Assembly (NCBI GenBank): GCA_951406725.2
Contig: OX597833.1
Coordinates: forward strand, 25,172,001-25,236,000
From: Octopus vulgaris
Lineage: Eukaryota
Direction of reading: 5' to 3'
Length of the DNA stretch: 64,000 nucleotides
This document shows positions 4,190 to 55,660 of this stretch, in pieces. The position numbers and the translations under genes were made by a program. The notes below the pieces were generated by a model. That model searched no databases. It worked only from the letters and a program-made list of their open reading frames with translations, and had not been told where the DNA came from. Position 1 is the first letter of the stretch; the number at the start of each line of letters is the position of its first letter.

Positions 4190-4660
4190 TATCCTTTACA
4201 TTCGACGGATATTTGTCCCCATCTTGTTTGTTGTTAACACAACATTTCGGCTGGTATAGCCTCAAGCAGGTGTCTTGGGAAATGTCGAAGCTGGGTTCTT
4301 ATTACTAAGGTATGTTTCGATGTTATTATTATTATCATTCAGGTCACCGCTTGGAATCGAACTCGGAATCTTGAGGTTAGTAGTACGCGCTCTTAACCAC
4401 TACGGGCTAACAACAACAACAACAACAAAAACAACAACAACAACAACAACAACAACAACAACAATAATAATATCATCGAAAAATACATTAGGAATGAGAA
4501 CCCAGGTTTGAAATTTCCCCAAGACACCTACAAAAGGCTGGAGATTATATCAGCTGAAAAGTTGTTAACAACAAACAAGATGAGGACAAATATCTATCGA
4601 ATGTAAATAATGTAAAAAATGTACATAATTCCTCATCTCTTAAATATAGAACTGTATTGT
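4190..4660. mobile_element. fold-back element: tRNA-like head plus degenerate minimal HHR tail
   Basis: 4195-4322 is the reverse complement of 4473-4612; minus arm has tRNA-like A box TAGTGGTTAAG and B box GAGTTCGATTCC; both arms carry ACAC-CT..-GGCT..CAGCY-GAAA-NGTTGT hammerhead-like remnants. Confidence 0.65.
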
Positions 4661-4679
4661 TTTATATCCTATTTATACT

Positions 4680-5090
4680 CAGCTACAAGCTGAAAGTACT
4701 GAAGACACTGAAAATACTGGAAAGGAAACTGGAGATAGAGAGGGAAGTACTGCCCCACCAAGTAATTTTGTTGAAAGGTGGGTGAATGTTGCGAAAGTGA
4801 CTCGAGTGAATTGTCTTGCTCTGGATATACGTCTGAAAGCCGGAGCAGTTGAGGGGAAGAGGGGTACCTATCTGCCGTGCTCTTTACAGTCAGGGTGACC
4901 AGGATGTGTGTGCATGGATGGGCCCTGGGCGGAACTCCCCTGCATTGGGGAATTTTGCAGTTAGATTTTTTGGTAACTATTTTTGTTTTTTATTGTTTAC
5001 AGGTTTTCTGTGTTAAACCCTACTTATCCCTTGTTTTATAATGTCACCATATGTTTTTGTATTCGGCCCTTCCGGCCAATAAAGAAAAGA
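4680..5090 (+). mobile_element. 3' end of an L1/Tx1-like LINE
   Basis: Decayed C-terminal coding stretch (KLEIEREVL..RWVNVAK), 3' UTR, AATAAA at about 5077 and (TTA)n tail. Confidence 0.5.
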
Positions 5091-5289
5091 TTATTATTAT
5101 TATTATTATCATTATCATTATTATTATATCATCATCATCATTATTATTATTATTATTATTATTATTATTATTATTATTATTATTATTATTATTATTATTA
5201 TTATTATTATTACTACTACTACTATTATTTATTATTTGTCTTTATCACAGATTTTGCTGGAGCTCCTGGAGTCTTGCATGCGTAGCGGG

Positions 5290-5690
5290 CTTACTACCTG
5301 CAGCCTACGGTAGTAAACTTGCTATGCATGCTATTCGTTCTTTTCAGCTATCTAATGCTTTCCCTATTATTCTGGCCGTGCCAAGGGGGGAAAGCCTATC
5401 TAACAGTTCTACTGGGCACTCTATCCAATTTCCTTTATATTCCCCATGATGCCTTCTGTTCCCAAGCATCCAACAATAGTTGGCACTATTTTCACCTCCT
5501 TCATTTTCTATAATTGGGCTATTTCGTACTTAAGAGGGTTGAATTTGTCTATCTTTTCGCCTTCCTTCTTGACTATTCGAGGGTCAACAGGGCATGTAAC
5601 ATCAACTATATAGCATATGTGGTGCATGTTGACGACCATCACCATGTCCGGTCTGTTGTCCTCTAGCACCTGATATGTTTGGATTTCTTG
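5290..5690 (-). mobile_element. R4/Dong-like LINE fragment (restriction-like endonuclease)
   Basis: NRPDMVMV..IVDVTCPVD..EKIDKFNPL (RPD..D..K RLE motif), with stops; abuts (TAA)n. Confidence 0.8.
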
Positions 5691-5699
5691 TGATGCTCT

Positions 5700-51783: not shown

Positions 51784-52259
51784 CGGTTTTTTTGACTATT
51801 TATTAAAATTTTATGTATTGATTAAGTCTTTCCTTGTTTGTTTTGCAAAATAGTGGTTTTGTCTCTAATAATATTTTATATATATATATATATATATATA
51901 TATATTGAATCATTCCCAAACATATATGCATGAGTGTATATATATGTATATATATATATATATATATATATATATATATATATATATATATATATATAAG
52001 CATTCATACACATGTATACATCTGTGTAAACATATATATATAAGTATTCATACACATATGTACATGCGTGAATATATGTAATACACTCATATATATATAT
52101 ATATATATATATATATATATATATATATATATAAGCATTCATACACATGTATACATCTGTGTAAACATATATATATAAGTATTCATACACATATGTACAT
52201 GCGTGAATATATAATACACTCATATATATATATATATATATATATATATATATTTTTAG

Positions 52260-52660
52260 TCTTTTACTTATGTTACCCATTTGACTGCGACCATGTAGGA
52301 GCACCAGCTTTTAGTTGAACAAAAATAATCTCAGGACTTATTCTTTGTAAGCCTAGTACTTAGACTATCGGTCCTTTGTGCCGAACCGCTAAATACACTG
52401 ACATCGGTTGTCAAGCGATTTTGTGAGGGACAAACACAGACACACAAACATATATATATATATATATATATATATATATATATATATATATATATATATA
52501 TATATATATATATATAACACGGACTTCCTTTAGTTTCTGTTTATCACAAGGCTTTCGTCGGCCCGAGGCTATAGCAGAAAACACTTGCCCAAGGTGCCAA
52601 GCAGTGGGACTGAGTCCGAAACTATGTGGTTCTTATCACACCGTCACACTTGCGCCTATG
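52260..52660 (-). mobile_element. SINE family A
   Basis: Reverse complement of family A. Confidence 0.85.
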
Positions 52661-54845
52661 TATATACATAATATATAATAGTTCGTCAGAGTTCATGAAA
52701 TTATTTTGAAATGTTTAATTCGTGCATACATTGACCTCGCGGAAACGATTTATTTTCGTATGGGGCAATAATTCTATTCCTCAATAAAAAGGAAAACACA
52801 TTTGAAACAGTTGTAAGTGAACCACTATCCATATTTTATTCATCTTACACGGAATTTGCAATTAGCTTTGACCTGGCATCTATTGAGTGCCGTATAATTG
52901 GTACATTGGTTGTACCTACGTATTGCTTTGAATCTCGTGGTATATACCGTAGGACATTTGTGACTGAACACGCAACCGGAATATAAACTTCTGTTTAAAT
53001 CGGTATGTACTTATATGTTCCTCTAATTTCGTGTTGTACGCTATTTCACTGACCCGAACTTGGTGCTTTACTATTTAAGAAACTGATTCATTTGAATCCT
53101 GAACGTTTATACATACATACATACATACATACATACATACATACATACATACATACATACATACATGCATACATACATACCTACATACATATATACATAC
53201 ATACATACATACATACATACATGCATACATACATAAATACATACATACATACATACATACATATATCTTCGATTCAATAACATGATTTTGAGTTCAAAAA
53301 AAATATTCAACAGCTCAACATAAGTGCATTCTTTTGCATGGTGGTAAAGATTTACAAATACCAATTCATTCGTTTTTGTTGTATATCGTGTGGGTCATTA
53401 GGCCAGTAATAAATGCACGCACTGGCTCAGGTTATATTCTTCATTAATTGTCAGTTCGTTCATGATTTGAAATTGAACAGTTGCGAATGTTTATATTTGG
53501 CAAAAGGACTCTCCTGAGATATAACACAATCCATTTCAACATTAGCATTCACATAAGGAATCTTGCAAAAACGAAAAAATACACTCCGTAGAAGACTCAT
53601 CATGAATGTTTTTACAAGTGCACGACCGCATGAAATGTAATATCTGTATATTTTAGCAAATAAACACTCGAAGTATTTTTCCAGTGGAAGATCTGAACTT
53701 GGAGCACAAACTGTAGAGGATACTGAAGTCAACAATGCCGGTGAAATATTTATAATCAACCGAAATGTCTCTATTGACTCGTTCTACCGACAGAGATCTG
53801 CAGTTTAATTACAGGATATATAAAAATTTATAAAGCAACCGCGCGTAAGATTATTTTACAATTTTCCTACATGTGGTTGCTTCAATACATGACATGCGTA
53901 CATATACACACATACGTAAATACATACATACATACATACATACATACATACATACATACATACATACATACATACATACATACATACATACATACATACA
54001 TACATACATACATACATACATACATACATACATACATACATACATACATACATACAGATAGACAGACAGACATGCATATTGCTAGAATTCGCCAGCATCG
54101 CCATCCCATTATACGCCACACAACATCTCATGTATTATCGACTTATCCGCATGAAACTAGTCAAATCACTTGTCAAATCCAATCAATCACGAGTCACTAC
54201 TCCAAAAATACATTGTTTTAGCAAATATTTCTCGACTAAGGTGATCTACGTGACACCCCTAGCGCCTGACGCATCGAAAAGCAAGATTCCGTCTCTGCTT
54301 TGAAAGACCCAGTTTCGATAAAATGATATGCCACCTCACACATCATATTCAGTAGTGATATGCGTATTTTTTGTAACATTATTATCGATCATCGATTATT
54401 GATAAGCATATGTGCTAAGTGTGTTTGTGTGTGCCAACTCCTTCCGCAGTTAATTTACCTTTCCTGAATATTTGATCAAACTCACAAGCAGCAGATGCAA
54501 GAGATTGCTAGAAACGCCATACATACAGACATACACACATACACAAACACACACATGCACACACGCGCACACAGACACACACACATGTGTGTGTGTGTAT
54601 ATATATATATAGATATAGCTAGATAGATACATATCTATATGTGTATACATATCTATATGTGTATATATATATATGTGATATATATATTATAATTATGTAT
54701 ATATATACATAGGTAATGATATAAATAATATATATGTATGTATATATATATATATATATATATATATATATATATATATATATATATATATATAATTATA
54801 TATATACATATACATACACACACACACACACACATATATATATAT

Positions 54846-55437
54846 TATAATAAAGGATAAAAATCATTAATGATTTACGCGGAAATAAAAACCTCATAGG
54901 TAAGTTTTATAAAATAATTTATAATTATATACACAATAAAAGGGATTGGCTATACGCCTCACCACGCACTGCAAAAATAGACGCCAAGAGACACTATTAC
55001 CACTATAAAATCTCCAAGAATAACACACTATGTTGTAGGCAAGCAAAAGAAAGTTAATGGATCAAACTTATGGTCAACCGTGTACAAGATCCTGTTTCAA
55101 GCTTAAAGTGAAAATATCACTTACTGCTATCATCAGCAGCAGTATTCCATAGCATAAATTACGAGTATCTCAAACTATGGATGCGAGCCGCGACGTCGCA
55201 TAACCAATATCCATCCGCACTCGTAGAAATATACTGCAAAGTAGTATTCATATCTTTCTTTTATAGCCACGTGTAGTGTCGAGAAATAGTCTGCAGTCAA
55301 TACAGCTTCGATCATTGAGTAAATTTTTCAAGTATTAATTATAATAAAGCTTAAAAATCACTAATGATTTTTACGCTTTATTATAATTAATACTTGAAAA
55401 ATTTACTCCATGACCGAAACTGTATTAACTGCAGACG
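54846..55437 (-). mobile_element. HHR-containing monomer (about 495 nt) with terminal direct repeat and fold-back
   Basis: tataataaagNNtaaaaatcaYtaatgattt at 54847 and 55340; hairpin 55291-55434; flanked by (TA)n. Confidence 0.75.
55078..55142 (-). ncRNA. type I hammerhead ribozyme
   Basis: CTGCTG CTGATGA TAGC..AAGTGA TATTT TCACTT..GCTT GAAA CAGGATCTTG TA^ CACGG. Confidence 0.75.
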
Positions 55438-55499
55438 ATATATATATATGTGTGTATATATATATATATATATATATATATATATATATATACACATAT

Positions 55500-55660
55500 A
55501 GGGGTAGAATTCACAAAAATAGAACAAAAGACAAAGACAGATGGTGTAGACAACAAACAGATGTATTAGTATAATCCTAATATTAAAGTCGTTAATATTT
55601 CGAGCCTACTCTCTTCCACAGAAAGGACCCCCTCCCCCCAAAAAAAACAAGGAGAGAAAA
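55500..55660 (-). mobile_element. pLTR-like repeat with degenerate minimal hammerhead
   Basis: Minus CTTT CTGTGGA A GAG AGTAGG CTC GAAA TATTAACGAC. Confidence 0.4.

Follow-up and report, generated by a model that had tools for sequence, protein, structure and literature searches.

Many unrelated hammerhead-bearing repeat families in a 64-kb stretch of the Octopus vulgaris genome, some of them ends of coding Penelope-like elements and others probably mobilised in trans

The stretch of DNA analysed here (the window) comprises 64,000 nucleotides of Octopus vulgaris contig OX597833.1 (assembly GCA_951406725.2, positions 25,172,001 to 25,236,000, forward strand). It is AT-rich, with abundant microsatellites, comes from a genome of 2.8 Gb, and carries nine supported sites with hammerhead ribozyme motifs. 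These comprise three closed non-coding units (arrays 1 and 2 and family I), two short elements whose 5' end is fixed (family H) or appears so (family A), three 3' termini belonging to coding Penelope-like elements (PLEs; F, G and J), and one family, C, without a visible coding partner. An earlier note had listed ten sites; nine of them belong to families with a type I fold, and the tenth, at 7760, found no support. The named relatives of the PLE proteins in the window come from Octopus vulgaris (64%) and Argonauta.

Motifs were sought with a type I descriptor made up of helix I, CUGANGA, a helix II region of 6-110 nt, GAAA, a self-complementary helix III and UH, with one unpaired base allowed on either side of helix II. 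In its strict form it found nine matches, three in array 1, five in array 2 and one in family H (51745), against a mean of 0.08 and a maximum of 1 in 40 local dinucleotide shuffles; an excess over dinucleotide-shuffled sequence had been set beforehand as the test of the prediction. With one or two core mismatches allowed, the window count came close to chance and was not used as evidence, so that decayed sites were judged through the genome relatives of each. Every genome search scored the best 40 candidates; the family samples therefore favour close copies, and the candidate numbers given below are not copy numbers. The core CUGANGA...GAAA...UH is intact within the window in arrays 1 and 2 and families H and I, and in most relatives of families A, C and G. 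In the descriptor-matched motifs, helices I, II and III surround the core, with helix I open and helix III palindromic, and since this palindrome is short, cleavage is predicted to need a dimer. The Rfam hammerhead models had no window match at the gathering score, and no hammerhead was among the best 150 of the 182 Rfam matches at E<=1.

The two arrays both lie in (TA)n. Array 1 (29824..31669) consists of a 490-bp non-coding unit in tandem plus an inverted arm, with three intact motifs that have a long helix II (30049-30155 on the minus strand, 30948-31054 and 31438-31544 on the plus strand). Array 2 (31760..34254) has a 557-bp non-coding unit in three minus-strand and two plus-strand copies, with intact motifs at 32048-32099, 32604-32655 and 33161-33212 (-) and at 33459-33510 and 34016-34067 (+). 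A type I motif is present in every tandem unit of both. The genome searches returned 1458 candidates for array 1, with full units 96-100% identical and arrays of up to 10 units, and 1926 for array 2, where the core was intact in 25/25 relatives and two fixed 3' ends lie 94 nt apart. Both families are young, and their near-identical copies are scattered over many contigs; the 3' ends are fixed, the 5' ends vary, and inverted arms are present. Across the unit junction, the longest ATG open reading frame (ORF) has 35 aa in array 1 and 19 aa in array 2, and the circular folds reach z values of -5.9 and -5.6, respectively (30 shuffles each). Family I (54850..55440, minus strand) is an older, terminally redundant non-coding unit with a 494-nt period, a motif at 55077-55143 and a short inverted arm at 55286-55439; its tail sequence repeats upstream of the motif at 494 nt, and the window copy holds a single motif. 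It gave 699 genome candidates, with the core intact in 16/27 relatives and no PLE frame near the copies examined. Judged by their sequence organisation, arrays 1 and 2 and family I are retrozyme-like closed units.

Family H (51565..51880) is a young, short non-coding element in (TA)n, about 240 bp long, with an intact motif at 51740-51783 (+) and a fixed 5' end; on its right side it terminates with the short 3' end, and to the left lies an inverted arm with the long tail. Its search gave 1072 genome candidates; 47 of the 65 matches listed were identical over the full 156 bp, nearly the same 5' start recurred in all 31 distinct copies listed, and the core was intact in 41/42 relatives. Older relatives have the tail in common and differ in their upstream sequence. 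Family A (4179..4656) appears as a head-to-head pair, seen as an inverted pair by self-BLAST, with (AAC)n between the copies. The order within the element is tRNA-like head (4340-4409 on the minus strand), (AAT/AAC)n spacer, motif, short tail. Both window motifs (4236-4275 on the minus and 4522-4566 on the plus strand) are decayed; among relatives drawn from 1925 first-look candidates, 28/33 keep CUGANGA..GAAA. By a strict test, 8/31 copies have a head with A/B-box-like segments and their 5' edge at the head, the remaining copies being shorter. ARAGORN called no tRNA in the head, no tandem copies occurred in 24 loci, and the tail had no match to the ORF-linked PLE ends compared, a set with no Poseidon-type query. 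Family C (14925..15160) consists of two 3' ends in inverted orientation, truncated to a variable extent on the 5' side. Its two window motifs, 15007-15067 (-) and 15073-15133 (+), are decayed at A9, and 31/34 relatives are intact (1440 genome candidates). Copies have a common low-complexity upstream sequence of variable length, and no PLE ORF was found upstream of 47 copies; the variable 5' edge suggests that family C is possibly the 5'-truncated end of a coding PLE.

The remaining three sites belong to coding elements. Element F (37955..41083, minus strand) is a decayed Neptune-like PLE with a broken frame, in which a reverse transcriptase (RT), a CX4CxxC linker and, at the C-terminus, a GIY-YIG domain with CCHH can be recognised; its hammerhead lies at the 3' end (38119-38158, minus strand) and has a U3-A8 core. 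A search gave 2421 candidates, and relatives carry RVT_1 and GIY-YIG. Element G (45716..47280, plus strand), an internally deleted PLE of a second lineage with inverted ends, retains an RT fragment at 45985-46434 and decayed motifs at 45782-45826 (-) and 47079-47124 (+). Among its 3024 candidates, the core was intact in 18/25 relatives and remains of a PLE ORF were found at 8/24 family loci; relatives of G have a C-terminal GIY-YIG domain, and their RT is 26-32% identical to that of F's relatives. Family J (55503..55670, minus strand) is the 3' end left by 5' truncation of a coding Neptune-like PLE, with its motif at 55590-55625. It has a variable 5' extent, and a subfamily copy, 73% identical, follows an RT-thumb/GIY-YIG frame in locus L334. 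J's core carries A6U in 20/20 copies and is canonical in none (1528 candidates); the helices are sound, and the motif is predicted to be weak or inactive. As the ORF was seen at just 1/39 loci of family J, its absence near A or C is weak evidence. The RT, the C-terminal GIY-YIG domain with CCHH and the linker Zn motif were thus found for F in the window, for G via relatives and family loci, and for J via L334, and all three have the hammerhead in a terminal repeat, an inverted copy and a one-sided tail. Of the two sites that had been placed in the termini of Penelope RT elements, both (F and G) stand, and J makes a third. The label Neptune-like is taken from the linker motif (PMC8557442) and from RT motifs. 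Two further observations concern PLEs. Adjoining the 3' end of F, at 37657-37820, lies a TA-flanked imperfect inverted repeat (77%) with the end motif TTTTACCCT and no visible hammerhead; and the PLE 3' untranslated region in locus L294 has a different frame of the GIY-YIG type inserted about 500-1100 nt beyond the GIY-YIG frame, which suggests a further PLE lineage.

Whole families deviate from the canonical core in a consistent manner. All 29 copies of element F examined have the core UUGAAAA, i.e. the U3-A8 swap, and a PLE family with intact 781-aa frames also has a U3-A8 motif; this swap was reported earlier (PMC4209133). Another coding Neptune-like family (L288:4540-4600 on the plus strand, L355-L374 and L240; 1394 candidates) has A3 and U8 in 22/22 copies, with the exact sequence AUGAAUA in 18. 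At the level of sequence, A3-U8 adds a third pair to those occurring naturally at the catalytic 3-8 position, and the covariation between families points to selection on the ribozyme fold. A narrow literature search found no natural A3-U8 core, and supplements, including the 2014 alignments, could hold cases. Furthermore, a young intact G-lineage family with 1312-aa frames (L375-L377) has an A9C core, and the family of L283, L286, L290 and L292 a U4C core.

We assessed how far the window represents the genome in 100 stretches of 10 kb (999,800 bases) taken at round coordinates across large contigs, a spaced rather than a formally random sample. It contained 46 motifs by the strict descriptor, spread over 32 of the 100 stretches, and four shuffles gave 3, 2, 3 and 1, which bears out the very high ribozyme density that had been anticipated. 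Bootstrapping gave 30-63 motifs per Mb (the first 40 stretches alone held 21), and extrapolation a genome total of about 120,000, roughly 80,000-170,000. The three strict insertions in the window are what this rate predicts, so the window is typical. The 46 motifs form 28 clusters or families, 19 of them single, and a Chao-type estimate is 70-100 families. The spacing between core halves was 34-98 nt, i.e. a long helix II, in 29/46 motifs and at most 21 nt in 17/46. Two features that the descriptor does not force were frequent: a C..G pair closing helix III (34/46) and (TA)5+ within 450 nt downstream (30/46, compared with 26% of random positions). With queries from two PLE lineages, Poseidon not being among them, a PLE ORF remnant on the same strand within 2 kb upstream was found for 0/46 motifs, and any remnant in 8 of the 100 stretches. 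Published counts, obtained with other descriptors and so not like for like, are more than 6,000 hammerheads in 16 families in a coral, about 5,000 in a mussel and up to 120,000 in the axolotl (PMC7229834), about 9,000 in Xenopus (PMC4209133) and 235 Rfam hammerhead matches in the giant squid (PMC6962438). The density and the long helix II together suggest that cephalopod hammerheads have been undercounted by orders of magnitude.

We believe that the window is probably an ordinary sample of a genome with many unrelated hammerhead repeat families, of which some are ends of coding PLEs and others gene-less units that RT/GIY-YIG proteins from several PLEs likely copy in trans. Inverted partners were found at 16/25 loci of H, 9/23 of C, 8/24 of A, 5/24 of I and 5/24 of F, and passengers and coding families alike have two 3' ends per family; this combination matches the inverted copy and one-sided tail described for PLEs (PMC8557442). 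The earlier note had treated the sites as a set of Penelope-dependent parasites, with many independent non-coding families. That description fits arrays 1 and 2 and I, and probably H and A, but not F, G and J, which are the ends of coding elements; no coding partner of C was seen. It would be a different matter if every site were a solo pseudo-long terminal repeat (pLTR), i.e. the 5'-truncated end of a coding PLE, with no independent passengers at all. This is true for F, G and J and possible for C, given its variable 5' edge. Arrays 1 and 2 and family I, however, close on themselves and leave no room for an ORF, which refutes the proposal for these three, while the single 5' edge in the 31 listed copies of H and the absence of upstream PLE remnants from the genome sample, searched with queries from two lineages, also argue against it, so that as an account of the whole set we consider it unlikely. 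Even less credible, to the point of being barely worth entertaining, is the notion that the arrays are satellites spread by DNA-level processes, with their motifs inactive relics. Several window copies are indeed decayed, but the scatter of near-identical copies over many contigs, their constant 3' and varying 5' ends and their inverted arms are at odds with such an origin, as are the intact cores in all 25 array 2 relatives and circular folds more stable than those of shuffles.

A single RT/GIY-YIG helper for the whole set had also been proposed, and this part is largely refuted. A GIY-YIG search gave 6136 candidates, and the 29 PLE loci among its best 30 fell into at least nine clusters at 80% identity. 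Intact 781-aa PLE frames were present in 16 of the 148 matches listed from this search, and frames of 1310-1312 aa in 9 of the 150 matches listed from a search with the G-lineage RT (5386 candidates); at the end of the latter family, both the motif, which has A9C, and the tail resemble those of G. By their frames, there are two young intact PLE families, from two lineages, of 781 and 1312 aa. A repeat annotation of Octopus vulgaris records 31 recently active Penelope-like families, and the word 'ribozyme' is absent from its main text (PMC13282606). That one PLE enzyme mobilises all the non-coding families is improbable in our view: besides the number of clusters and the intact frames in two lineages, F, G and J have ORFs of their own, and the families differ widely in age. 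What speaks for a common helper is confined to a subset. Arrays 1, 2, H and I, with some sampled families, share an end made up of CCC-T and 12-20 AT-rich bases, followed by (TA)n, so that the claim of no shared sequence outside the core is borne out by BLAST among the window families but needs an exception for these four. The gap between the two 3' ends is 83-105 nt in this subset; coding families of the Neptune-like kind show about 33-60 nt and the G lineage 55-115 nt, and as the ranges overlap, this is a weak hint. CCCT precedes 6/30 motif-linked TA runs and 69/1167 other runs, an enrichment suggesting that the subset may share one helper. The end motif is, however, short and was spotted after the fact, and one unseen or promiscuous helper for this subset is at best weakly indicated.

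Several findings weigh against copying in trans by several PLEs. The tails of arrays 1, 2, H, I, A and C match neither intact family, nor any of 53 GIY-YIG or ORF-end loci, beyond low-complexity or chance level (30 loci with GIY-YIG, 20 longer stretches and, from the 1312-aa family, 3 ends were compared), so that no helper emerged from this comparison. The core of family J is non-canonical throughout. Minimal PLE hammerheads cleave weakly (PMC4209133), and 8/9 tested Xenopus retrozyme dimers did not cleave (10.64898/2026.07.22.740005). Contigs of three runs guessed to be RNA contain array 2 and not a unique stretch, a comparison confounded by copy number and made on contigs, which cannot show ends; the head-to-tail joint is present in a genome-like run as well as in the contigs of guessed RNA type.

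If the several-PLE explanation nevertheless holds, a tandem transcript would be cut by paired hammerheads in a dimer, and a host ligase would close the monomer into a circle. The (TA)n target would then be nicked by a PLE endonuclease, and reverse transcription by the PLE RT would be primed from both nicked DNA strands at AT-rich positions of the RNA, giving tandem runs and an inverted arm. Dimer cleavage of motifs with a short helix III, circularisation by tRNA ligase and mobilisation by PLEs have been proposed or shown in other animals (PMC7229834; PMC4209133; 10.64898/2026.07.22.740005), and by analogy we infer that the same route may operate here. The 5' ends, fixed in H and apparently so in A, and the lack of observed tandem copies make it more likely that H and A are copied from linear transcripts, which for A would come from a tRNA-type promoter. 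A more far-reaching synthesis, which we offer tentatively and with some doubt, is that intact hammerheads in this genome number about 100,000 or more and make up 70-100 families or more, most with a long helix II that standard models miss, which would be a higher ribozyme density than any seen so far in an animal; PLE enzymes would copy the gene-less families (circles, an element with a fixed start and a short interspersed element (SINE) with a tRNA head) in the absence of tail homology, recognising them by nothing but their fold and a TA-like priming site. As the genome contains, side by side, young passengers whose insertion ends are fixed and readable and two PLE families that are young and intact, the question of the helper, which in animal retrozymes is proposed but unproven, is directly testable.

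The window also holds candidates that were set aside. The site at 7760 (7757..7793, minus strand) has three core mismatches; its search gave one match, itself, among 11 genome candidates, and about 2 Mb of DNA from this genome held no relative. A candidate at 34841 (34809-34847, minus strand) has a hammerhead-like core within an old low-copy repeat (6 matches) and is intact in 0/3 aligned relatives. Those at 1823/1882, 28609 and 60466 were not counted, no informative relative being among the 40 matches listed. Other repeats are common. The intervals 5240-7600 and 43641-44120 contain decayed pieces of what, from their motifs, we take to be a non-long-terminal-repeat (non-LTR) retrotransposon, with the restriction-like endonuclease end on the minus strand and a common 3' region (77%). 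Many tRNA-headed SINE-like copies without a hammerhead, some in inverted pairs, lie at 10257-12480, 25242-26471, 50746-52635 and 60930-61288. Tc1/mariner transposase fragments occur at 19453-20501 (HTH_Tnp_Tc3_2, E 5e-10), and a repeat with internal 101-bp tandem units at 48309-49273 is 93-97% like many copies at other loci of the genome.

What is new here is the census, the estimate of density and diversity, and the negative test of a single helper; the element class is already published, as is the link to PLEs, on which animal retrozymes have been proposed in print to depend (PMC7229834; 10.64898/2026.07.22.740005). The text passages of these two papers name no cephalopod, and the species tables of the latter could include some; a literature search, incomplete and leaving out supplements, found no published account of octopus hammerheads. 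In addition, the families described here provide natural covariation at the catalytic 3-8 pair.

Family A recalls two schistosome repeats, Sm-alpha, which is of tRNA origin, and Sj-alpha. The three are alike in being short and SINE-like with a type I hammerhead (PMC8490949), and family A has a tRNA-like head; it differs in its minimal palindromic helix III, its (AAT/AAC)n spacer, its inverted pairs and the lack of tandem copies in the loci searched. The endonuclease-containing (EN+) PLEs of the Neptune and Nematis types (PMC8557442) resemble the coding elements in joining an RT to a C-terminal GIY-YIG domain with CCHH and a linker Zn motif, and in their inverted 5'-truncated copy, a tail at one end only and (TA)n targets. 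In contrast, one-sided tails measure about 33-115 nt here and 30-40 bp there. Published minimal PLE hammerheads (PMC4209133) likewise have a short palindromic helix III, an unpaired base 5' of helix II and the U3-A8 variant, and are mostly single dispersed motifs of truncated PLEs, with inverted pairs 100-700 bp apart; they number 2,000-9,000 per genome, and the A3-U8 pair fixed in one coding family here sets the octopus motifs apart. The closest relatives of the closed units are the metazoan non-LTR retrozymes (PMC7229834; 10.64898/2026.07.22.740005), which also have a type I motif in each short non-coding tandem unit, low GC content, many families per genome and a proposed dependence on PLEs. 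Their sizes are given as 170-400 nt for the RNAs (PMC7229834) and 51-972 bp for consensus sequences (10.64898/2026.07.22.740005), compared with 490-557 bp for the octopus units, which differ in having inverted arms and, in (TA)n, 3' ends fixed at two points, and many of the motifs here have a helix II region of 34-98 nt. The density of about 44 motifs per Mb stands against up to 120,000 copies in the 28-Gb axolotl genome, counted with a different descriptor.

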